The notes under the pieces are model-generated. The model worked only from the letters and a program-made list of their open reading frames with translations. It ran no database searches and had not been told where the DNA came from. Source: Rickettsiales bacterium (GTDB taxonomy: Bacteria; Pseudomonadota; Alphaproteobacteria; Rickettsiales; SXRF01). From it: DNA of 64,000 nt. The stretch covers positions 101,183-165,182 of the forward strand of contig JAOAUZ010000001.1 in assembly GCA_025464625.1 (NCBI GenBank), read 5' to 3'. Every line of letters begins with the position of its first letter. Position 1 is the first letter of the stretch. This document shows positions 653 through 36,581 of this stretch, piece after piece. A program made the translations under genes and the position numbers.

Positions 653-722
653 TTGTCATTCCGACGAAGGAGGAATCTTGTCATTATCTTGAAAAGATCC
701 CTCGACTACGCTCGGGATGACA
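653..722. repeat. RPE-like palindromic element (family PE-A, TTGTCAT...ATGACA termini)
   Basis: Reads ttgtcattccgacgaagg...gatccctcgactacgctcgggatgaca. The arms are imperfect inverted repeats and match about 12 other loci in the window. Confidence 0.8.
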
Positions 723-2846: not shown

Positions 2847-4247
2847 CTAACTCGGTGCTATCATAGTTTCTGGTTTTACCCATGAATCAAATTGTTCGCT
2901 GGTGAGTAGCCCCAGTGCGATTCCAGCTTCTTTTAATGACGTGCCTTCCTTATGTGCTTTTTTGGCAATTTTTGCTGCATTATCATAACCAATATGTGGA
3001 TTGAGCGAGGTAACCAGCATCAGCGATTCATTCATCAGCTTGTTGATGCGCTCGCGGTTGGCTTCTATTCCCACCACGCAATTATCAGTGAAACTAACCG
3101 CGCCATCAGCAATCAGGCGGATAGATTGCAGCACATTATAAATTATCACAGGTTTGAATACATTAAGCTCAAAATGCCCGTTTGAACCACCAATGGAAAC
3201 AGCAACATGGTTGCCCATCACCTGCGCGCAGACCATAGTCAATGCCTCGCTCTGGGTTGGGTTTACTTTCCCCGGCATGATTGATGACCCCGGTTCATTT
3301 TCGGGCAATGACAACTCACCAAAACCACAACGTGGCCCACTTCCGAGCAGGCGAATATCGTTGGCTATTTTCATCAATGAAACGGCGAGGGTATTTAACA
3401 CTCCTGATGCTTCCACTAGCGCGTCATGCGTTGCCAGTGCCTCGAATTTATTAGGTGCGGTGACAAATGGTAATTTGGTGATGCTTGCAACTTCTTTGGC
3501 AAAGGCTTCAGCAAAACCTTTTTTGGCGTTTAGACCTGTGCCAACTGCTGTTCCGCCTTGTGCCAGTTCATAGAGCGCGGGGAGGGTTGATTTTGCACGG
3601 CGGATTCCGTTTTCAATCTGCTTGGCATAACCAGAAAATTCCTGCCCTAAAGTTAGCGGTGTTGCATCTTGTAAATGAGTGCGCCCAATTTTTATGATGC
3701 TTGCAAATTCTTTGGCTTTTTTATCCAGCGCAGAGTGCAGATGCGTCAGCGCGGGAATGAGAGAATTATTTATTTCATAAGCTGCTGCAATGTGCATAGC
3801 AGTTGGGAAAGAGTCATTGGATGATTGCCCCATATTCACATGATCATTCGGATGAATTGGTTTTTTGCTGCCCATAACTCCGCCCGCAAGCTCAATTGCA
3901 CGGTTGGAGATGACTTCATTCACATTCATGTTGGTTTGTGTGCCACTGCCTGTTTGCCACACTACGAGAGGAAAATGTCCAGCAAGTTTTCCGTCGATTA
4001 CTTCACCCGCGGCTGCGATAATTTTTTCACCGATTGATTTATCTAGCACGCCGAGCTGCATGTTCACCACTGCTGCCGAACGCTTCAAAATTCCGAATGC
4101 TGTGATGAGTGGTTGTGGCATTGTCTCGCCACCAATTTTGAAATTCTGCAAACTACGCTGGGTTTGCGCGCCCCAATATTTATCAGAAGCTACGTCAATA
4201 TTGCCAAAAGAATCTGATTCAACGCGGTTTTCTGTGCGGTTGCTCAT
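2847..4247 (-). CDS. fumC: Fumarate hydratase, class II
   Basis: 466 aa with the [16 protein letters not shown] signature and an N-terminal ESDSFG...[10 protein letters not shown]. Confidence 0.95.
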
Positions 4248-4283
4248 AAAATTTCCTTTCTATTACATAAATCATGTATCTGC

Positions 4284-4457
4284 AGAGATACTTCGCTGCG
4301 CTCAGTATGACAAGTAAAATTCTATGGAGTTTTGGTGTTAGTACAAGTCATTTCGAGACATAGCCGAAGAATCTCTGTGTAGTAGATGAGATACTTCGCT
4401 ACGCTCAGTATGACAAGTAAAAATTAGATGAGATACTTCGCTGCGCTCAGTATGACA
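4284..4457. repeat. Cluster of PE-A units (one full element flanked by two half elements)
   Basis: gagatacttcgctgcgctcagtatgaca occurs three times (about 4285, 4390 and 4430). A partner arm gtcatttcgagacatagccgaagaatct lies at about 4347. Confidence 0.75.
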
Positions 4458-4466
4458 GATTATGTA

Positions 4467-5129
4467 TTATAACCCTGAAAGCAACCTATCGATTTCTGCC
4501 TGTGATGAAGCCTGAGCAGCAAGCTGAGGACCATGCAGAAGATCTTTATCATCTTTTGGAAGGACAATATTTTTAGGATCAGCTGGTGCATTATTTGCTT
4601 CAGCGATTTCTGGCTCTGTGCCGAACAGATCATTAAGTTTTTCCACGCGATCCTCGATATTTTCGAGCAAGGTTATAACTTTTCTGATGCGCTGTCCTGT
4701 AATATCCTGAAACGCGCAGGCATCATAAATAATTGTGGTCGCATCAACGATTTTTTGTTCTTTTTCACCGCCAACTCCGCTGGCTGCAGCTTGCACAGCA
4801 TCTGCCGCATCCATGATTTTATTGGTGGCACTTTCGGTGGCTTTTACTACTTCTTCTAGGTGCATAGACGCGTCATTAATTGCATCTTCCGCTTTAGAAT
4901 TTGTTTGAATAGCAAAAATTTCAGTTTTTGCATCGCAAATGTATTTTGCCAATTTGGCAATTTCCTGATGCACGAAATTATCGGCAACGCTATTTTTAGG
5001 ATTAAGTGATGCAGCCATATTCATAAAAATATCGCCCACATCTTCCAGAGTAATATCACCCTTATTCTCACGCGTTTTTATCATGCTGGTAAGCAATGTC
5101 CGTCCCAGTGTTAATTGCATGTCACCCAT
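4467..5129 (-). CDS. cheZ: CheZ-like CheY-P phosphatase
   Basis: 220 aa. The motif AFQDITGQRIRKV matches the CheZ catalytic region (E. coli DFQDLTGQVIKR). The C-terminal SSQAEIDRLLSGL resembles the CheY-binding peptide. It lies directly downstream of cheY. Confidence 0.75.
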   Translation of the reverse strand: MGDMQLTLGRTLLTSMIKTRENKGDITLEDVGDIFMNMAASLNPKNSVADNFVHQEIAKLAKYICDAKTEIFAIQTNSKAEDAINDASMHLEEVVKATESATNKIMDAADAVQAAASGVGGEKEQKIVDATTIIYDACAFQDITGQRIRKVITLLENIEDRVEKLNDLFGTEPEIAEANNAPADPKNIVLPKDDKDLLHGPQLAAQASSQAEIDRLLSGL

Positions 5130-6459: not shown

Positions 6460-6577
6460 ATTAATTTTTGCTTCAAATCTCCTTGCAATGAACCTTCCTC
6501 AAAACAAGTCAGTTATGCAGTATAACCTCATGTTTTTCGGTTTTCATTGCGGCGCGCTTTTTTGCCAAAATTAATTT
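6460..6577. repeat. Long imperfect-palindromic element (family PE-C) abutting the plsC-family stop codon
   Basis: The ~100-bp core is about 94% identical by eye to 36451-36555. The outer arms aattaatttttg / caaaattaatt pair. Confidence 0.75.
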
Positions 6578-6597: not shown

Positions 6598-6669
6598 TGT
6601 CATTCTGAGGCGTAGCCGAAGAATCTCCTTGTAGCATAGATGAGATACTTCGCTGCGCTCAGTATGACA
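6598..6669. repeat. PE-A palindromic element
   Basis: tgtcattctgaggcgtagccgaagaatct...gagatacttcgctgcgctcagtatgaca. Confidence 0.8.
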
Positions 6670-6674
6670 CCCTC

Positions 6675-6778
6675 TTGTCATTTCGAACGAATGTGAGGAA
6701 TCTTTTCAAGAATAATGTAAAGATGCCTCGACATCCTCCTTCGCCAAGGCTTCGGAGGACAGGAGCTCGGGACGACAA
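6675..6778. repeat. PE-A palindromic element carrying a nested extra hairpin
   Basis: ttgtcatttcgaacgaatgtgaggaatc...cctcgacatcctccttcgccaaggcttcggaggacaggagctcgggacgacaa. The same nested cctccttcgccaaggct(t/a)cggagg occurs at 30049-30166. Confidence 0.75.
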
Positions 6779-8301: not shown

Positions 8302-8360
8302 GGTATTCTCCAAAAGTTTTTAGTCTAATCGTTATTTAACACACTATTACATATTACACA

Positions 8361-8415
8361 TAATGCCACAAATCGGTAATTTTTGTGTGAAGATTTTGTG
8401 ACTTCATATGTGACA
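8361..8415 (-). promoter_or_regulatory. Conserved upstream block of paralog B (putative promoter/operator or 5' UTR)
   Basis: taatgccacaaatcggtaatttttgtgtgaagattttgtgacttcatatgtgaca is nearly identical to 10158-10213. It contains three TGTGA repeats spaced 11-12 bp apart. Confidence 0.5.
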
Positions 8416-8456
8416 GTTTTGCGCTTTTAGCAAGTTATTGAATAATAATGATTATA

Positions 8457-10124
8457 CTAGTTTTTGGCGTGTGAAGAGGCGCTTGGGGCGATGGGAGGCA
8501 TTTCCCATCCGCGCTGCTTCACATGGTCAATCAATGCCAGCGGGTCGATGGTTAAATTGCTTGCCTTAGCCTGTTCATTCCACGCTTTAAGAACGTTTTT
8601 CTGCTCGGCAGTCAGCCCAGCTTCTATGCGTTTTGCTTCCTCAGCGTGCTGCGCAGTTATTTTTTCTGAATCATATTTTTCTATTTTGCCATAGGTCTTA
8701 TCCAGAACATAATCAACAGCTTTGTCACCACCCAGAGTTTCTCCTACAAGGGTTGCTGTAACGCTCCTTTGTAGGTTTGATTTACCGCCATTAGTCATCG
8801 CATCAGCAACATACATAGCATCTTTTATTGCTGAACCAGCAAAAAGAGCTGCTGGATGCCAAGCACCCACCGCTATACTACTAGCTTCTATAGCTGTTCC
8901 TGCGCCCTGTGCAACTGCTGCTCCGCGTTTGTCACTATTGCCTTCGTTATCCTTATGATCCCATAAATTTTTGGTGTGCATTGCGCCTTCCGTTGCAACC
9001 ACTGTACCGCCAACGATTCCCAGAGGTTTTGCAACAATCGAAAGAAGCTCTGCGACTGGTGCAAAAAACGCTTTGGTTGACGCCCACGCACCGCTAGGCG
9101 GAGTTGGTGCTTTAGGAGCGGGAGGCGCAGCACTCTGAACCGCAGTTGCTGTGTTTGTAGCCCCGCTAGTTGTTGCTGTTGGCGATGTTGTGGTTGAAGC
9201 TAGTGGCGGTTTGTTTGTTGGAGGTGTGGTGCTGGTCGCTGGTTGAGCAGTAGGAGTGATTTCACCAAATTCAGTGGCTGTGGTTGGTGCTTTTGAACCA
9301 GCGTTCATTGCTCTGGATCTTGCAGCAGCATCTGCGCGGGTGACATATTGGTCAAGCGGTTTAGCTGTGGAATCTGCTATATTCTTTTCTAAAACACCTA
9401 TTTGTTCGCGCATTGATTTGGCACTTTTCGCCAGATCATCTGCTTTTGGATCTAAGCCTTTCAGATTCCAAGCATCCTTCAACCTGCTTGGATTTACCAG
9501 ACGTTTTGAATCACGGCTCGCCTTTATTTTCTCTGCGTCTGCTTTCATCTTTGCAGCATCTTGTTCTGCTTTCTCAGCTGCTTCTTTCAGAGTTTTGAGG
9601 CGTTCTTGATTTTTAGCAAGCTCTTGCGCTGCTTTTATTTCGTCTTTGGGTGCGGGCTTGAAGTTGCCGTGTTCATCCACCGTTCCCAGAGTATTATTCC
9701 TGTTAGTGCGGATTTTATTTGCTGCATAAGCCCCGCCTGCACCAAGCACTGCGGTTGTTCCTATAGCGGCGGCTGCAACTCCTTCTCCTTTATCTTCAGG
9801 GTTGGGAGCGATACCAAGCGCTTCTTTTGCGCCGTTCCATAATTTTTTTGCACCGTCTGACAGTTTTTTACTTAGATCTTCCTTCTCTAAACCTAGCGTT
9901 TCACGAATTTTATCTCCCCAGCCACCATTGCCATCTTTGTCTTTTGTCCACTCATTCAGCTTGTCGCGGGCGGTATCACTGAAAGTAACAAGCGCAATCA
10001 CAGCCAGCGCGATGATGGCAAGCACTTTCAAGCCATTCCATAAAAAACTACCGACTTTGCTCAGGAATGATTTTTCCCTAGGCTGCGCGTAGTCATCTTC
10101 GTCATCATTACCAAATAGAGCCAT
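8457..10124 (-). CDS. Hypothetical N-terminally anchored protein, paralog A
   Basis: 555 aa. It begins MALFGNDDEDDYAQPREKSFLSKVGSFLWNGLKVLAIIALAVIALV (acidic tail plus TM). This is followed by a coiled-coil region, a P/T-rich linker (TSTTPPTNKPPLASTTTSPTATTS) and a G/A-rich C-terminal domain. Confidence 0.6.
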   Translation of the reverse strand: MALFGNDDEDDYAQPREKSFLSKVGSFLWNGLKVLAIIALAVIALVTFSDTARDKLNEWTKDKDGNGGWGDKIRETLGLEKEDLSKKLSDGAKKLWNGAKEALGIAPNPEDKGEGVAAAAIGTTAVLGAGGAYAANKIRTNRNNTLGTVDEHGNFKPAPKDEIKAAQELAKNQERLKTLKEAAEKAEQDAAKMKADAEKIKASRDSKRLVNPSRLKDAWNLKGLDPKADDLAKSAKSMREQIGVLEKNIADSTAKPLDQYVTRADAAARSRAMNAGSKAPTTATEFGEITPTAQPATSTTPPTNKPPLASTTTSPTATTSGATNTATAVQSAAPPAPKAPTPPSGAWASTKAFFAPVAELLSIVAKPLGIVGGTVVATEGAMHTKNLWDHKDNEGNSDKRGAAVAQGAGTAIEASSIAVGAWHPAALFAGSAIKDAMYVADAMTNGGKSNLQRSVTATLVGETLGGDKAVDYVLDKTYGKIEKYDSEKITAQHAEEAKRIEAGLTAEQKNVLKAWNEQAKASNLTIDPLALIDHVKQRGWEMPPIAPSASSHAKN

Positions 10125-10157: not shown

Positions 10158-10213
10158 ATTATGCCATAAACGAGTAATTTTTGTGTGAAGATTTTGTGAC
10201 TTCATATGTGACA
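10158..10213 (-). promoter_or_regulatory. Conserved upstream block of paralog A
   Basis: ttatgccataaacgagtaatttttgtgtgaagattttgtgacttcatatgtgaca. The 34-bp core is identical to the block at 8382-8415. Confidence 0.5.
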
Positions 10214-10256
10214 ATTGCATTGTGTTCTAATATGCTGAATAATAAAGAAAAAATCT

Positions 10257-11606
10257 TTACATGCCGAATAATTGCCCTAGCCCACCGCGCATCATACCTT
10301 TTTTGCCCATTTTCTTGATTTTTTTCATCATATCCTGCATCTGCTGTTGTTGTTTCAGCAGTTTGTTCACATCCTGAACGGTAAGCCCAGAGCCTTTAGC
10401 GATGCGTATACGCCGAGAAGCGTTGATGAGTTTAGGGTGGGTGCGTTCTTTTGCCGTCATCGACAGGATAATAGCTTCCTGACGGGCAAGAATTTTGGGG
10501 TCAATCTTCGCATCCGCCATTTTTTCTTTGAGTTGCCCCATCCCCGGTAGCATTTTCATCATGCTGCCGATGCCACCCATTTTGTTCATTTTGCGGAGCT
10601 GATCCAATAAATCGTTGAAATCAAACTGACCCTCCATCATCCGCGCACCCATTTTTTCGGCTTCATCGGTGCTGATGGATTCGGCGGCTTTTTCTACCAG
10701 AGAAACAATATCGCCCATATCAAGGATGCGTGATGCAATGCGCGCTGGGTGGAATTCCTCAAACTCATCGAGCTTCTCGCCGATACCAATAAATTTAATC
10801 GGCTGACCTGTAACCGCGCGCATAGAAAGCGCAGCACCACCGCGCCCATCACCATCAACGCGGGTTAGGATGATACCTGTAACACCAACCTGTTCATGGA
10901 AGGTTTTGGCGATATTAACAGCATCCTGACCAGTGAGAGAATCAGCAACTAGCAAAGTCTCCAGCGGATTTGCCAGCTTCTTTACCGCTTTTAATTCCTC
11001 CATCAATGCATCGTCAATATGCAGCCTGCCTGCAGTGTCGAGCAATAATACATCATAACCTTCAAGGCGGGCAGCTTTCAGCGCACGGGCGGTTATCTCT
11101 AGCGGTTTTTCACCAGCAACAATCGGCAGTGATGCAATGCCAGCCTGTTTTGCCACTTGTTCTAATTGCTGTTGCGCGGCTGGGCGGTAAATATCCAGCG
11201 AGGCAACCAGAATTTTTTTGTTTTGTTTGTTTTTCAGGCGCAGAGCGAGCTTGCCTGTGCTGGTGGTTTTACCTGAGCCTTGCAAACCGACCATCATCAC
11301 CACAACAGGTGGTGTGGCAGCAAGGTTAATAGCTTGATGTTCGCTGCCGAGCAATTCCGCCAGATGGTCATTTACCAGCTTTATCACCATTTGTGCTGGT
11401 GAAACGCTGGCGATAACTTCTGCACCTAACGCTTTGGTTTTTAATGAGGCGATAAAATCTTTGACAACAGGCAGGGCAACATCGGCTTCCAGCAAGGCAA
11501 TGCGGATTTCGCGCATGGCGGAATCAATATCTGCCTCCGACAGCACACCACGCTTGCGTAGACCACTAAAAATACCAGTGAGTTTAGAGGAAAGGGATTG
11601 AAACAT
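10257..11606 (-). CDS. ffh: Signal recognition particle protein Ffh
   Basis: 449 aa with GLQGSGKTT, DTAGR and a Met-rich C-terminal M domain. Confidence 0.95.
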   Translation of the reverse strand: MFQSLSSKLTGIFSGLRKRGVLSEADIDSAMREIRIALLEADVALPVVKDFIASLKTKALGAEVIASVSPAQMVIKLVNDHLAELLGSEHQAINLAATPPVVVMMVGLQGSGKTTSTGKLALRLKNKQNKKILVASLDIYRPAAQQQLEQVAKQAGIASLPIVAGEKPLEITARALKAARLEGYDVLLLDTAGRLHIDDALMEELKAVKKLANPLETLLVADSLTGQDAVNIAKTFHEQVGVTGIILTRVDGDGRGGAALSMRAVTGQPIKFIGIGEKLDEFEEFHPARIASRILDMGDIVSLVEKAAESISTDEAEKMGARMMEGQFDFNDLLDQLRKMNKMGGIGSMMKMLPGMGQLKEKMADAKIDPKILARQEAIILSMTAKERTHPKLINASRRIRIAKGSGLTVQDVNKLLKQQQQMQDMMKKIKKMGKKGMMRGGLGQLFGM

Positions 11607-12703: not shown

Positions 12704-12778
12704 TTGTCATTCCGAACGAATGTGAGGAATCTTTGCAAAATTAAAGAAAAGATCCCTCGGCTACGCTCGGGATGACAA
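12704..12778. repeat. PE-A palindromic element
   Basis: ttgtcattccgaacgaatgtgaggaatctttgcaaaa...gatccctcggctacgctcgggatgacaa. It contributes a spurious upstream ATG (12772) to the next ORF. Confidence 0.85.
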
Positions 12779-12789
12779 AGGACAAAAAT

Positions 12790-13569
12790 ATGAACCCAGT
12801 GCGACTTATTGCTCGCCTTGATATTAAAGGCGAAAATCTGATTAAAGGTATACAGCTGGAGGGACTCAGGGTTATTGGCAATCCGTGGGAATATGCCACT
12901 GGCTATTATAATGATGGCATTGATGAACTGATTTATATGGACACGGTTGCCAGTCTTTACGGGCGAAATAATCTTTCTTCGATTGTTGAATATACCTGCA
13001 CCAATATTTTTGTGCCGATGACGGTTGGTGGCGGAATCCGCAGCTTGCAGGATGTAGAAAAAATGCTGCGGGCAGGGGCGGATAAAGTGGCGATTAATAC
13101 CGCGGCAATTCATAACCCAAAAATTATTTCTGAAGTGGCAAAGGTTTTTGGCGCGCAGTGCATGGTGCTTTCTATTGAAGCAAAAGCGCAGGGTGAAGGA
13201 AAGTGGGAAGCCTATAGTGACAATGGGCGGGAGCGCAGTGGAAAATCAGTGGTTGAATGGGCAAAACAAGCAGTGGAAATGGGGGCTGGAGAAATACTTG
13301 TTACCTCTGTTGACCGTGAAGGAACAAGGCGTGGCTTTGATGTTGCACTGGTACGGGCGGTGACGGACGCGGTGTCTGTTCCTGTTATTGCATCTGGTGG
13401 TATGGGAAATACGCAGCATTTAGTTGAGGTAGTAAAACAAGGAAATGCCAGTGCAGTGGCGATGGCGGATATACTCCATTATCGGCGTGCTACGCTTAAA
13501 GACATTCGCTCTGAAGCGAGCAAGGCGGGAATAAAAGTGCGTATGCCAGAGGTAAAAATAGATGCCTGA
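12790..13569 (+). CDS. HisF-like cyclase subunit, glycan-amidation associated (WbuZ-like)
   Basis: IARLDIKG...GGGIRS...ADKVAINTAA...VTSVDREGT...IASGG, a HisF (beta/alpha)8 signature. Its context with the HisH-like and WbuX-like genes supports the call. The start was moved to the ATG at 12790, outside the repeat. Confidence 0.8.
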   Translation: MNPVRLIARLDIKGENLIKGIQLEGLRVIGNPWEYATGYYNDGIDELIYMDTVASLYGRNNLSSIVEYTCTNIFVPMTVGGGIRSLQDVEKMLRAGADKVAINTAAIHNPKIISEVAKVFGAQCMVLSIEAKAQGEGKWEAYSDNGRERSGKSVVEWAKQAVEMGAGEILVTSVDREGTRRGFDVALVRAVTDAVSVPVIASGGMGNTQHLVEVVKQGNASAVAMADILHYRRATLKDIRSEASKAGIKVRMPEVKIDA

Positions 13570-14287
13570 AACAGTTACTATTGTTGATTATGGTGTGGGA
13601 AATCTGCGCAGTGTGGCGCGGGCGTTTGAGCATGTAGGAGCGCAGGTGGAGGTGACTTCTGATGCGCAGAAAATTATGCAGGCAGATCGCTTGATTTTGC
13701 CGGGGGTTGGTGCATTTGGGCATTGCATGGAAGAATTACATAAACGGCAATTGATAGAACCAATTTTGAAATTTGCTGCAAGTGAGAAACCGTTTCTTGG
13801 TATCTGCGTTGGGATGCAGATTATGCTTAGTGTTGGTGAAGAATTCGGCGAACATAAAGGGCTGGGGTTGATTTCTGGCAGGGTGCAAAGTTTGTCATCG
13901 CGAGCGAAGCGTGGCGATCCATCTTTATTGCGCTCAAGTGCCGCTTTGGCTGGCTGGATTGCCACGTCGGCTACGCCTCCTCGCAATGACGAAAATATTA
14001 ATTGTAGTAAGCGTATATTACCAGTTATCGGCTGGATGATTCTTAAGAAAACAGGGGATTGGCAGGGAACAATTTTTAGTGGTACTGCGGAAGGAAGTTC
14101 AGTTTATTTTGTTCACTCATTCGAGGCTAATCCTGACGATAAAACAGTGCGACTCGCCGAATATGAATATGACGGACTAAACATAACTGCTGCAATTGCT
14201 AAAAATAATCTTGTTGGGGTTCAGTTCCACCCAGAAAAAAGTGGTCTAGTAGGAATTAATATACTTAGACAATTTATGTTGCTGTGA
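13562..14287 (+). CDS. HisH-like glutamine amidotransferase subunit (WbuY-like) with an in-frame repeat insertion
   Basis: IVDYGVGNLRSV, GICVGMQ (catalytic Cys) and VQFHPEKS. At 241 aa it is about 35 aa longer than typical HisH because of the element at 13892-13992. Confidence 0.8.
   Translation: MPETVTIVDYGVGNLRSVARAFEHVGAQVEVTSDAQKIMQADRLILPGVGAFGHCMEELHKRQLIEPILKFAASEKPFLGICVGMQIMLSVGEEFGEHKGLGLISGRVQSLSSRAKRGDPSLLRSSAALAGWIATSATPPRNDENINCSKRILPVIGWMILKKTGDWQGTIFSGTAEGSSVYFVHSFEANPDDKTVRLAEYEYDGLNITAAIAKNNLVGVQFHPEKSGLVGINILRQFMLL
13892..13992. repeat. Palindromic element (PE-A-related subfamily) inserted in frame in the hisH-like CDS
   Basis: ttgtcatcgcgagcgaagcgtggcgatcc...ggattgccacgtcggctacgcctcctcgcaatgacga. 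It encodes about SSRAKRGDPSLLRSSAALAGWIATSATPPRNDE between conserved HisH blocks. Confidence 0.75.
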
Positions 14288-14321
14288 TTTATTAATATGT
14301 TAATGGTGTTCGAGTAAAGAC

Positions 14322-14386
14322 AAGATCCCTCGACAAGCTCGGGATGACAGAATTTGTCATTTCGAGCGCAGCGAGAAATCTTTGCA
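14322..14386. repeat. PE-A arms in swapped order (right arm then left arm)
   Basis: aagatccctcgacaagctcgggatgaca gaat ttgtcatttcgagcgcagcgagaaatctttgcag. Confidence 0.7.
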
Positions 14387-14410: not shown

Positions 14411-15592
14411 ATGAAACGTGCGATTCAAAAATTATACAACCTCCCAGAAAAAGTGGTGTTCTGTAAAAAATGTACCATGTCTAACCAGCGTCCACGCATC
14501 ACTTTTGATGCAGAAGGTGTATGCTCGGCTTGTAATTATGCAGTGTTCAAACATACGCTTGATTGGGAAAAACGTGAAGATGAACTCTCTGCGCTTTGCG
14601 ATCGCTTTAGACAAAAATCAGGATATGATGTCCTCGTTCCTTGCAGTGGCGGGAAAGATGGCGGGTTTACTGCACATTATTTGAAGGCTCGGCATGGGAT
14701 GAAGCCACTTACCTGCACTTGGGGCGCGAATCTTTACACTTCTATTGGTTGGGAGAATTTAGAGAATTTTATTTCTATCGGCGGGTTTGATAATGTTCTG
14801 GGTCGTCCTAGCGGGCAGGTGAACCGTAAGCTGACGCGGCTTGCTTTTGAACATATGGGTGACCCATTTCAGGGATTTATTTACGGGCAGGCGAATTTTC
14901 CGTTGCGCGCTGCTTTGCAGAATAATGTGCAGCTTATTATGTATGGTGAAAATGGCGAAGTGGAATATGGCGGGGATATGAAAAACGCCTATAAACCAAC
15001 GCGCGATATAACAGATTATAACAAGCATTATTTTTCAGGAATTCCACCTGAACAATGGAGCAAGCACGGCATTAGCGAGCGCGATCTTGAGCTTTATATG
15101 GGTCCGCCTGCTGCTGATGTTCGCAAGGCGGGCATTGAAATGCATTTTATGGGTTATTATAAAATGTGGGATCCGCAGGAAAATTTTTATTACTGCGTGG
15201 AGCATAATGGCTTTAAGCCAAACCCAGAGCGCAATGAAGGTACATACTCAAAATATGCCAGCATTGACGATAAAATCGATGGATTTCATTATTATTTGGC
15301 GTATATGAAATTTGGCATTGGGCGTGCTACTTCTGACACTGCCCACGAAATACGCGATGGGAAAATTACCCGTGAAGAGGGCATCGCGCTGGTCAAAAAA
15401 TTTGATGGAGAATTTCCACGCCGTTACCACAAAGAATTTTTGGAATATTGCGATATGACAGAAGCAGAGTGCGAGCAGATTCTTGATAGCTGGCGGGCGG
15501 AACATATTTGGGAGAGACGTGGGCATAATGGCGCGTGGGAGCTAAAAAATCCGATATACTCTACTGGTGCGGACAATCTGCTTGCGGGGTGA
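14411..15592 (+). CDS. N-acetyl sugar amidotransferase (WbuX/WbpG/PseA-like, PP-loop)
   Basis: 393 aa. The N-terminal zinc ribbon is CKKCTMSNQRP...GVCSACNY and the PP-loop is VPCSGGKDGG. Confidence 0.8.
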   Translation: MKRAIQKLYNLPEKVVFCKKCTMSNQRPRITFDAEGVCSACNYAVFKHTLDWEKREDELSALCDRFRQKSGYDVLVPCSGGKDGGFTAHYLKARHGMKPLTCTWGANLYTSIGWENLENFISIGGFDNVLGRPSGQVNRKLTRLAFEHMGDPFQGFIYGQANFPLRAALQNNVQLIMYGENGEVEYGGDMKNAYKPTRDITDYNKHYFSGIPPEQWSKHGISERDLELYMGPPAADVRKAGIEMHFMGYYKMWDPQENFYYCVEHNGFKPNPERNEGTYSKYASIDDKIDGFHYYLAYMKFGIGRATSDTAHEIRDGKITREEGIALVKKFDGEFPRRYHKEFLEYCDMTEAECEQILDSWRAEHIWERRGHNGAWELKNPIYSTGADNLLAG

Positions 15593-16847: not shown

Positions 16848-16919
16848 TTGTCATTTCGAGTGCAACGAGAAATCTTTGCAAGAATAATGAAAAGATTCCT
16901 CGACAAGCTCGGAATGACA
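16848..16919. repeat. PE-A palindromic element
   Basis: ttgtcatttcgagtgcaacgagaaatctttgcaag...gattcctcgacaagctcggaatgaca. Confidence 0.85.
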
Positions 16920-25340: not shown

Positions 25341-25412
25341 TGTCATTCCGAACATATGTGAGGAATCTTTGCAAAATCAAAGAAAAGACCCCTCGACAAG
25401 CTCGAGGTGACA
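25341..25412. repeat. PE-A palindromic element
   Basis: tgtcattccgaacatatgtgaggaatctttgcaaaa...cccctcgacaagctcgaggtgaca, between the convergent kinase and kdpC. Confidence 0.85.
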
Positions 25413-32532: not shown

Positions 32533-32539
32533 GATAATG

Positions 32540-32574
32540 CCCTCACCCTAACCCTCTCCCAGAGGGAGAGGGGA
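32540..32574. repeat. PE-B half element
   Basis: ccctcaccctaaccctctcccagagggagagggg. It overlaps and supplies the last ~9 codons of pyrE (SPLPLGEG*). Confidence 0.8.
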
Positions 32575-33177
32575 TTTTTGGGATTTCAAATCACGGCTGC
32601 CCGGTTTTATGGCAGGGATTTTTTGCAGCTCTGGCGGTAGTTCATCTGGTTTATAAGTTGGTACATCGAGCTTTAGCAGAGAAATTAGTGGAATGGTAAG
32701 GCTAACATCATTGCTGCCACGGCGGTCGATAAGGCTTGCCACCGCCACAGCTTTCGCACCAAAAGACTCAACGCAGGCAACGGCTTCCATAGAGGATTTT
32801 CCAGTAGTAACCACGTCTTCAACGATCAATATTTTTTGCCCAGCTTCCAGATTAAAACCGCGACGCAGAACAAATTTTCCCTCTACACGTTCGCAGAACA
32901 TAGCATCGATTTCCAACTGCCTGCCCATTTCATAGCCAACCACCACGCCACCCATGGCAGGCGCGACTATTGCATCAATTTTTTGTCCAGTTGACTGCAC
33001 CCATTCACGGATTTTAAGTGCTAGCGCAGCGCATAAACGCTCGCCACGTTTTGCATCCATCATTACTCGCGCACATTGCAGATATGTTGGGCTATGCAGC
33101 CCAGACGAAAGGATAAAATGCCCGCTGAGCATCGCGCCAGCATCTTTGAATTCTTGGATTATGTTCTCGCTATTCAT
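32548..33177 (-). CDS. pyrE: Orotate phosphoribosyltransferase
   Basis: 209 aa with the PRPP-binding motif ILIVEDVVTTGKS. Confidence 0.9.
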   Translation of the reverse strand: MNSENIIQEFKDAGAMLSGHFILSSGLHSPTYLQCARVMMDAKRGERLCAALALKIREWVQSTGQKIDAIVAPAMGGVVVGYEMGRQLEIDAMFCERVEGKFVLRRGFNLEAGQKILIVEDVVTTGKSSMEAVACVESFGAKAVAVASLIDRRGSNDVSLTIPLISLLKLDVPTYKPDELPPELQKIPAIKPGSRDLKSQKSPLPLGEG

Positions 33178-33211: not shown

Positions 33212-33282
33212 TTGTCATCTCGAGTGCAACGAGAGATCTCTACAAAATTAATAAGATCCCTCGACTACGCTCGGGATGACAA
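33212..33282. repeat. PE-A palindromic element
   Basis: ttgtcatctcgagtgcaacgagagatctct...gatccctcgactacgctcgggatgaca. Confidence 0.85.
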
Positions 33283-36429: not shown

Positions 36430-36581
36430 ACTTCTTCAATAGCTCTACTTTGGCTTCAAATCTGCTTGCAATGAACCTTCCTCAAAACAAGTCAGTTATT
36501 TAGTATAACCTCATGTTTTTCGGTTTTCATTGCTTCGCGCTTTTTTGCCAAAGTGAGTTATTTAAGAAGTCTATTTATGTG
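36428..36581. repeat. PE-C long palindromic element abutting the kinase stop codon
   Basis: The outer inverted repeat tagacttcttcaatagctctac / ...ttatttaagaagtcta includes the TAG stop. The core matches 6468-6568. Confidence 0.8.

Follow-up and report, generated by a model that had tools for sequence, protein, structure and literature searches.

Within the 64,000-nt stretch of DNA analysed here (the window, to whose positions all coordinates refer unless a locus, L with a number, is named), the gene for a HisH-like (WbuY-type) glutamine amidotransferase contains a palindromic element of 99 nt, equal to 33 codons, which begins with base 2 of codon L111, ends with base 1 of codon E144 and keeps the reading frame. 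The element is an inverted dimer of two hairpin units belonging to the CGTC/TGTC-tagged repetitive extragenic palindromic sequences (REPs), synonymous with the SRM repeats of the Ssn nucleases, and very probably represents a selfish or near-neutral CGTC-REP/SRM dimer that is not part of the ancestral enzyme. The closest named orthologues of the gene product are labelled 'MAG: Rickettsiales bacterium', and the host is regarded as a Rickettsiales-like lineage. The gene and the parts of its insert are:

13562..14287, + strand, intact 241-aa open reading frame (ORF) of the HisH-like (WbuY-type) glutamine amidotransferase (ORF listing, TIGR01855, structure matches)
13893..13991, unstranded, in-frame inverted dimer of two hairpin units, a CGTC/TGTC-tagged REP (= SRM) (sequence, fold, sister orthologues)
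13893..13920, + strand, left unit U1, TGTCATCGCGAGCGAAGCGTGGCGATCC (unit finder)
13921..13955, unstranded, 35-nt spacer separating U1 and U2 (orthologue comparison)
13956..13991, − strand, right unit U2, GGATTGCCACGTCGGCTACGCCTCCTCGCAATGACG (unit finder)

Direct reading of positions 13892-13992 gives ttTGTCATCGCGAG...CTCGCAATGACGaa, and the residues 111-144 encoded across the element are (L)SSRAKRGDPSLLRSSAALAGWIATSATPPRND(E), with GRVQSLSSR and PPRNDENINCSK as junction peptides of the insert-bearing protein. The first-pass annotation of this DNA, made from the letters and an ORF list, had placed a palindrome with inverted termini at 13892-13992 and credited it with about 34 added residues. 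The sequence and its inverted termini are as described there, but the element proper is confined to 13893-13991; likewise, the in-frame addition stands, but the peptide listed has 33 residues and the net gain over insert-less orthologues of 204-210 aa amounts to 31-37 residues. That neither a frameshift nor a stop is introduced holds entirely, the 241-aa ORF being uninterrupted and the element being free of stops in the used frame and also in two other frames. U1 is composed of TGTC-ATCGC-GAGCGAAGCGTG-GCGAT-CC, i.e., a tag, a 5-bp stem started by A-T, a 12-nt loop and a C after the palindrome, and ends in ...GCGAT-CCAT. U2 reads CGTC-ATTGC-GAGGAG-GCGTAGC-CGACGTG-GCAAT-CC, with a 5-bp stem and a 22-nt loop holding a small inner hairpin, and ends in ...GCAAT-CCAG. 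As RNA, the whole element folds into one long hairpin (−47.6 kcal/mol, z = −3.0) which none of 200 shuffles equalled, and its G+C content is 60% versus 42% in the rest of the hisH-like gene.

Comparison with orthologues (proteins P0001, the window protein, to P0014) identified both filled and empty forms of the site. The insert is absent from all 14 more distant sequences of the first alignment as well as from the nearest relatives of the window protein, P0002 and P0006, which are 89 and 86% identical to it outside the loop. The empty loop comprises 8 residues, xIPKLNDR (Q-AIPKLNDR-ILPV in P0002, for example), and this short form was found in 23 of the 30 closest homologues aligned. An ancestral HisH segment was rejected, as outgroups and sister orthologues are devoid of it; on this alignment evidence, the insert is repeat-derived, though not private to the window genome. 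Repeat-derived peptides occupy the identical position and reading frame in P0003, P0005, P0007, P0004, P0011, and P0012. Searching for other proteins bearing the insert peptide gave no candidate. At the DNA junctions of the five filled orthologue lineages, TGTCA begins exactly 4 nt after GTGCAR in all cases, followed by different combinations of units:

Window (P0001), U1 + U2
L169 (P0004), U3 + U2
L002, L175 and L176 (P0007, P0005 and P0003), decayed left arm + U2'
L005 (P0012), U3 + opposite-strand U1
L003 (P0011), U1 + long-looped U4

The U1 sequence (27/28) thus forms the left arm of the L003 insert and, in reverse orientation, the right arm of that in L005, and the spacer between the units differs in length and sequence in every insert-carrying orthologue. 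An insert-less close relative was identified for four of the five filled lineages, P0011 being the one without an empty sister in the sample. Bootstrap support for the pairs of filled and empty alleles is 100% for P0004/P0009, 99.5% for P0012/P0014, and 89% for P0001/(P0002, P0006), and P0003, P0005, and P0007 are grouped with the empty P0008 in a 100% clade. The empty alleles retain the xIP motif of the outgroups.

It is exceedingly improbable that the insert is an assembly error or that the gene is a pseudogene, despite the window being derived from an uncultured-type genome and palindromes being able to mislead assemblers. In a Logan assembly made separately from run SRR21397094, a contig of 1599 nt is identical to window positions 12750-14348 across the element, albeit this assembly and that of the window may have reads in common and are possibly not independent. 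Moreover, homologous inserts occupy the same site in four other lineages, on nine contigs from separate assemblies, and frame, catalytic triad and neighbouring genes are intact.

At the protein level, TIGR01855 (HisH) matches the ORF at 195 bits (cut-off 105), split in two stretches, and HisH chains from the PDB align to residues 6-111 and 157-235, leaving a gap of about 45 residues compared to 8 in the enzyme from T. thermophilus. The codons of the catalytic residues, all on the + strand, are located at 13805-13807 (Cys82), 14228-14230 (His223), and 14234-14236 (Glu225), and the three residues are conserved without exception in 120 homologues. An AlphaFold2 model built with 120 sequences has a mean predicted local distance difference test (pLDDT) score of 90.1, with values per ten-residue block of at least 92 on either side of the insert and of 71, 52, 45, and 56 across residues 111-150. 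Foldseek matches this model to the HisH chains 4gud, 1ka9_H, 7ac8, and 1gpw (E 1e-16 to 1e-20, target-normalized template modelling scores of 0.84-0.92 overall and of 0.88-0.92 for 4gud, 1ka9, and 1gpw). Accordingly modelled, the insertion site is a surface loop, variable in length, of a HisH-like glutaminase subunit, and the insert is predicted to form a floppy loop between the strands GLISGRV and VIGWMI with the HisH core intact. Several points of the first-pass annotation are corroborated by these comparisons, namely the HisH-like identity, the intactness of the catalytic blocks, the repeat-derived nature of the insert as judged by orthologue alignment and, at the level of the model (core above 90, insert 45-71, HisH structures at about 0.9), its expected position in a surface loop. 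The tryptophan of the Gly-Trp following the insert is presumably equivalent to W123 of T. maritima HisH, an interface residue contacting HisF.

Repeat family of the insert

CGTC-tagged REPs have been defined as elements with a tag that is often TGTC (CCTC being a further variant), A-T at the stem start and a CCA tail (Di Nocera et al., 2013, BMC Genomics 14:522; PMC3733652). They are mainly alphaproteobacterial and mainly organized as dimers; some are intragenic, and in-frame dimers encode 20-30 residues, while the four families established at that time have stems of 8-9 bp and loops of 4-5 nt (PMC3733652). An association of CGTC REPs with transposases is not reported in the literature. For the NTS/SRM repeats with the consensus CGTCATTCCCGCGMAVGCGGGAATCYRG and a size range of 20-50 nt, binding as single-stranded DNA (ssDNA) and cleavage a few nt upstream by SsnA, a 94-aa GIY-YIG nuclease, has been described, with GTC before and C after the stem being critical for these activities (Chenal 2025, Nat Commun 16:2388; PMC11893778). 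One or more motifs are found near 71% of the ssnA homologues, and 42% are flanked by motifs on either side (PMC11893778).

Both insert units conform to this architecture in tag, stem start and tail. The tags, TGTC in U1 and CGTC in U2, are unpaired and directly 5' of the palindrome, as the CGTC REP/SRM definition asks, the stems ATCGC/GCGAT and ATTGC/GCAAT start with A-T and show compensatory variation, and GTC before as well as C after the stem are retained in U1 and U2. Within the window, about eleven sites of the same architecture were detected, including the copy in the hisH-like gene; the other ten or so are all intergenic. A typical site consists of two inverted units of 69-117 bp in total, and the intergenic copies are usually no more than about 20 nt away from a stop codon. 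The common unit plan is a YGTC tag, an AT-started stem, a loop, the complementary stem, and a C with Y-A-G tail, with at least eight stem types in the window varying by matching changes on both sides (among them ATTCC, ATCCC, ATTTC, ATCTC, ATACT, ATCGC, and ATTGC). For the terminal motif TGTCATYNCGAR, 21 occurrences were counted in the window versus 3.5 expected, and units defined by their flanks alone gave 24 perfect stems versus 0.73 in shuffles. In a set of 181 units drawn from the window and from related loci, the tag begins with C in 121 and with T in 60, position −1 is a pyrimidine, and the tail consensus, ATC-Y-A(71%)-G(52%), agrees with the published NTS consensus.

A connection to ssn genes emerged from syntenic relatives of the window. 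In L005 and L006, a 96-aa GIY-YIG ORF between a PseF-like and a HisF-like gene is bracketed by CGTCATCGCGAGGAGGCGTAGCCGACGCGGCGATCC and the inverted TGTCATTGCGAGCGAACAAAGTGAGCGCGGCAATCC, both units of the U2 type, and U2 is close to the ssn-flanking unit in L005 and L089. Among 80 metagenomic homologues of ssn type, known here by Pfam PF01541 and a length of about 95 aa, a unit was found upstream in 36 cases, downstream in 41, and on both sides in 29. In Rickettsia OZ034920.1, the ssn-flanking unit is CGTCATTGCGAGGAG-[inner hairpin]-CGACGYGGCAATCY, with the outer 15 and 14 nt being the same as in U2. This GIY-YIG link, found independently here, is already published (Chenal 2025) and is not new; like the related inserts at the very same position in other orthologues, it was not part of the first-pass annotation. 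Judged from sequence, the insert is filed under the CGTC-REP superfamily/SRM class, its size lying within the 20-50-nt range of SRM units, and not under CGTC-1 to -4 because stem and loop lengths differ.

Histories of the insertion site

Parsimony on the tree does not separate about five to six gains from a single gain followed by about six losses, and three histories, which partly overlap, have been considered for how the site came to be filled. In the first, for which the case is considerable though short of probable, one old filled allele and an empty allele coexisted and were exchanged among lineages by homologous recombination, with units inside the insert also being swapped by recombination or gene conversion, as recombination is common in surface-glycan clusters. 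In line with this, the left junction 4 nt after GTGCAR is fixed in the five filled alleles and right-flank lengths group by clade (23 / 8, 8 / 11, 11 nt). The empty P0014 appears to be a recombinant, as it shares 88-89% identity with its sister P0012 along most of the gene but only 58% in the 107 nt after the loop, where identity to the other clade is 77-78%. Informative sites are clustered beside the loop in three sister pairs (permutation p 0 to 0.017), although divergence of the empty sister alone, as in the case of P0002, may account for part of the signal. P0004 and P0007 share 91-92% identity over the right arm, U2, plus flank versus about 72% elsewhere, and the longest mismatch-free run between P0007 and P0005/P0003, 86 nt at alignment columns 312-397, is centred on the insert. 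The conserved units may possibly serve as recombination anchors in such an exchange. However, simple descent does not give the flip of U1, which is the left arm (+ strand) in the window as well as in L003 but the right arm (− strand) in L005, and empty alleles with the outgroup-like xIP loop cannot be derived by deletion.

The five unit combinations at a single site (U1+U2, U3+U2, decayed+U2', U3+U1 reverse, U1+U4) can alternatively be read as independent hits of different dimers on the same nucleotide, the insertion target being filtered by selection for one permissive in-frame site. That four of the five filled lineages have a close relative keeping the ancestral xIP loop is consistent with such a hot spot. 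So is the near identity of units in otherwise diverged genes, with U2 being 36/36 identical between the window and L169 at 55% identity of third codon positions, U1 27/28 between the window and L003 at 43%, and U3 29/30 between L169 and L005 at 37%. In addition, the ATCGC and ATTGC stem types of the insert occur nowhere else in the 64 kb. On the other hand, no target motif beyond the pyrimidine at −1 was found in the 181 units, and neither the flanks of the element (AAAGTT and AAAATA) nor those of six other copies contain a direct repeat, i.e., a target-site duplication. Furthermore, right-flank lengths and sequences shared by filled alleles across sub-clades speak for common descent of the filled allele, and the decayed, incomplete dimer of P0003, P0005, and P0007 is identical in 66/66 nt of insert plus loop in three genomes, which cannot be explained by fresh transposition. 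Repeated insertion is deemed possible but rather unlikely.

The insert is the best-conserved DNA of the gene; the partly decayed copy, for example, stays in frame in three genomes differing by 10-20% elsewhere in the gene (80-90% identity over the gene remainder). This invites the assumption that the insert itself is under selection, as DNA (e.g., as an Ssn-dependent transformation barrier at the glycan locus), as mRNA hairpin or as protein loop. It would fit that the two changes by which U2 in L002, L175, and L176 (34/36) deviates leave the inner hairpin paired (GGC-GTA-GCC to GTC-GTA-GAC), and that U1 and U2 keep the GTC and C which are critical for Ssn (Chenal 2025). Also, 5 of the 11 repeat sites of the window are no more than 4.2 kb from the glycan cluster, resembling the NTS clusters near surface-antigen genes of Neisseria for which a role as barrier to transformation has been proposed (Chenal 2025, PMC11893778). 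Nevertheless, such a co-option is improbable: close relatives lack the insert, spacer and loops differ freely among orthologues, the decayed left arm of P0003, P0005, and P0007 is conserved without forming a hairpin, and recent recombinational spread accounts equally well for the conservation. Moreover, neither a terminator nor a promoter signal was found at the element, and Rfam gave no match at gathering scores over the window, with only a chance long non-coding RNA match at E < 1 around the element.

Under the favoured reading of a selfish or near-neutral CGTC-REP/SRM dimer, the repeat would have come in or spread through an ssDNA-based process tied to an Ssn nuclease or by homologous recombination anchored on its units, it would be without function for the enzyme, and the insert-bearing protein would be made and active with about 33 extra residues in a loop. 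Several observations weigh against this interpretation. With 5-bp stems and 12-22-nt loops, U1 and U2 deviate from the stems and loops of the four published families, and mobility of SRM units has never been demonstrated (Chenal 2025, PMC11893778). No ssn gene is present within the 64-kb window, and among the best 120 of 1853 matches no ssn homologue was traceable to the 925-kb contig of the window. The exceptional conservation of the insert is not expected for plain neutral junk. Finally, an mRNA hairpin of −47.6 kcal/mol or 33 residues just before the conserved Gly-Trp could impair the enzyme, and the proximity to the latter may affect formation of the partner complex.

Taken alone, the insert is one more in-frame insertion of the REP/RPE type (RPE, Rickettsia palindromic element) and as such a useful, unsurprising natural tolerance test for HisH-type glutaminases. 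The five filled lineages, four of them with an empty close relative, together with mosaic units and conserved insert DNA constitute a compact comparative data set for studying how Ssn-associated hairpin repeats spread and whether they promote or block recombination in surface-glycan loci. The filling of one codon site in multiple lineages with mosaic units and a hyper-conserved insert may be new, but does not so far amount to evidence for a new mechanism. It is doubtful, though conceivable, that the site at codon 111 is a natural record of SRM/CGTC-REP mobility, i.e., of homing-like or recombination-anchored copying into diverged orthologues followed by near-invariant retention; if true, this would be the first comparative evidence for how Ssn-associated repeats move and for selection on an intragenic copy.

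Glycan locus and further repeats in the window

The hisH-like gene is not located in a histidine operon but flanked by WbuZ-like and WbuX genes, with a gene for a PseF-like cytidylyltransferase upstream and genes for epimerase, Bac_transf, HpcH, Wzy_C, AsnB, and MurJ proteins downstream. The direct neighbours are:

12790..13569, + strand, WbuZ/HisF-like cyclase partner (TIGR03572 WbuZ at 282 bits, just missing the cut-off of 299.7; TIGR00735 at 273 bits)
14411..15592, + strand, WbuX-family N-acetyl sugar amidotransferase (TIGR03573 at 339 bits versus a cut-off of 203)

The stop codon of the WbuZ-like gene overlaps the start of the hisH-like gene, and gene order is identical in six syntenic loci of related uncultured genomes. 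From the glycan-cluster neighbours and the conserved synteny, the hisH-like protein is assigned as WbuY-type glutaminase subunit of a sugar-amidation system in a surface-glycan locus. The first ATG of the listed WbuZ-like ORF, at 12772, falls in the terminal ATGACA of a repeat dimer (12705..12777), and the ATG at 12790 (MNPVRL...), matching the start in orthologues, is probably the true one.

Besides the copy within the hisH-like gene, the following unstranded repeat sites were obtained from motif and unit scans:

654..722, unstranded, 69-bp inverted dimer, intergenic (motif and unit scans)
4280..4470, unstranded, intergenic cluster of three co-oriented, near-identical TGTCATACTGAGCGYAGCGAAGTATCT units and an AGTC-tagged unit at 4346
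6598..6777, unstranded, intergenic cluster of at least four units between convergent genes (unit scans)
12705..12777, unstranded, 73-bp inverted dimer separating the PseF-like gene from the WbuZ-like gene (unit scans)
14322..14381, unstranded, two units with tags facing each other between the hisH-like gene and wbuX; the orthologous position in L007 is also occupied
16849..16919, unstranded, 71-bp inverted dimer, intergenic; orthologous copy in L007 at 13163-13231
25341..25412, unstranded, 72-bp inverted dimer between convergent genes, 16 and 11 nt from the two stop codons
30050..30166, unstranded, intergenic dimer with long right arm (unit scans)
33213..33281, unstranded, 69-bp inverted dimer, intergenic (unit scans)
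61259..61338, unstranded, 80-bp inverted dimer, intergenic (unit scans)

Unlike the usual inverted dimer, the site at 4280-4470 is a tandem cluster, with its three TGTCATACTGAGCGYAGCGAAGTATCT units lying within 170 nt. In L005 (8824-8859) and L006, a unit provides the PseF-like gene with its last six codons and stop (...RHREEA*). The C-terminus of P0007 (L002 930-967) bears an extra repetitive tail, GFGIRDSGLGIRD, which is not present in other orthologues and may result from read-through into another short repeat.

The cassette of unit, ssn gene and unit between the PseF-like and HisF-like genes of L005 and L006 spans about 385 bp; in L003 these genes overlap directly, and in the window the slot holds the 73-bp dimer only. 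Rickettsia OZ034920.1 possesses such a cassette twice, in L173 and L174 (383333-403620 and 1224784-1245071), each time within a prophage-like region that is duplicated and includes genes for head-tail connector, capsid and lysozyme. Units of the ATTGCGAG type were also found in at least 120 viral contigs of IMG/VR. Phages may carry unit-ssn-unit cassettes between hosts.

Three further repeats are present in the window. A different palindrome of 111 nt, unrelated to the YGTC units, exists in two copies of 92% identity (6466-6576 and 36449-36559), each just downstream of a + strand gene and folding into a long hairpin at −27.7 and −38 kcal/mol (z = −3.9 and −6.0), respectively. A 59-nt repeat (90% identity, 8360-8418 and 10158-10216) is intergenic and lies to the right of the adjacent − strand genes 8457-10124 and 10257-11606 (ffh); it is also found at orthologous places in L007 (4709-4743 and 6483-6517) and may be a shared regulatory element. 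The G+C-rich 34-nt hairpin repeat GCCCTCAYCCTAACCYTCTCCCAGAGGGAGARGG occurs at 2790-2823, just below the low-coordinate (3') end of the − strand ORF 2847-4247, and at 32539-32572, straddling the 3' end of ORF 32548-33177. It represents a second REP-like family whose members are possibly terminators.

Comparison with known repeat systems

With the CGTC REPs and SRM repeats, the insert and its relatives share the CGTC/TGTC tag, the AT-started stem, the C plus CC(A)/YRG tail, and the arrangement as inverted dimers with variable spacers. Common to them are also the location mostly just downstream of ORFs with occasional in-frame intragenic dimers, the predominantly alphaproteobacterial distribution, and a unit type bracketing small GIY-YIG (ssn) genes. 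In contrast to the CGTC families of 2013 with 8-9-bp stems and 4-5-nt loops, the insert has 5-bp stems and 12-22-nt loops, some with an inner hairpin, and in contrast to the SRM repeats the window itself is devoid of an ssn gene. The filling of one site by different unit combinations among orthologues is not reported in either publication (Di Nocera et al., 2013; Chenal 2025).

REPINs and BIMEs, which are mobilized by RAYT transposases of the IS200/IS605-like type (IS, insertion sequence), are similar in that short hairpins form inverted doublets which can adopt a single long hairpin fold, are distributed over intergenic space, and flank a single-copy nuclease gene acting on ssDNA hairpins. 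They differ by the GTAG instead of the YGTC tag, and an identity as GTAG REP/REPIN was rejected on account of the tags of the units. In addition, the nuclease of the present system is of the GIY-YIG type and not an HUH tyrosine transposase, and Ssn is not known for strand transfer or mobility. Classical bacterial MITEs (miniature inverted-repeat transposable elements) such as the Correia elements are small and non-coding, have inverted termini and many copies, and are sometimes inserted in frame within genes. The insert resembles them in small size, inverted termini, copy number and occasional in-frame position within genes, but it has no parent IS carrying a DDE transposase, and the arms are autonomous hairpin units that are also found singly. 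A classical MITE was rejected: inverted termini are present, but target-site duplications are missing in the element and six other copies.

The parallel drawn at the outset was to the RPEs, reportedly described by Ogata et al. in 2000. As with these, a palindromic repeat resides in frame in a coding gene, adds a few dozen residues and keeps the ORF, and the host is Rickettsiales-like, though not demonstrably a Rickettsia. The classic in-frame element, RPE-1, has a greater length and is not a CGTC dimer. The likeness is drawn indirectly, via the published equation of RPE-4 and RPE-6 with CGTC REPs and via the Rickettsia unit. Within these bounds, the comparison made by the first-pass annotation is apt and nearly literal, as in R. 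conorii CGTC-1 is RPE-6 and CGTC-4 is RPE-4 (Di Nocera et al., 2013; PMC3733652), and the ssn-flanking unit of Rickettsia has the outer 29 nt of U2.

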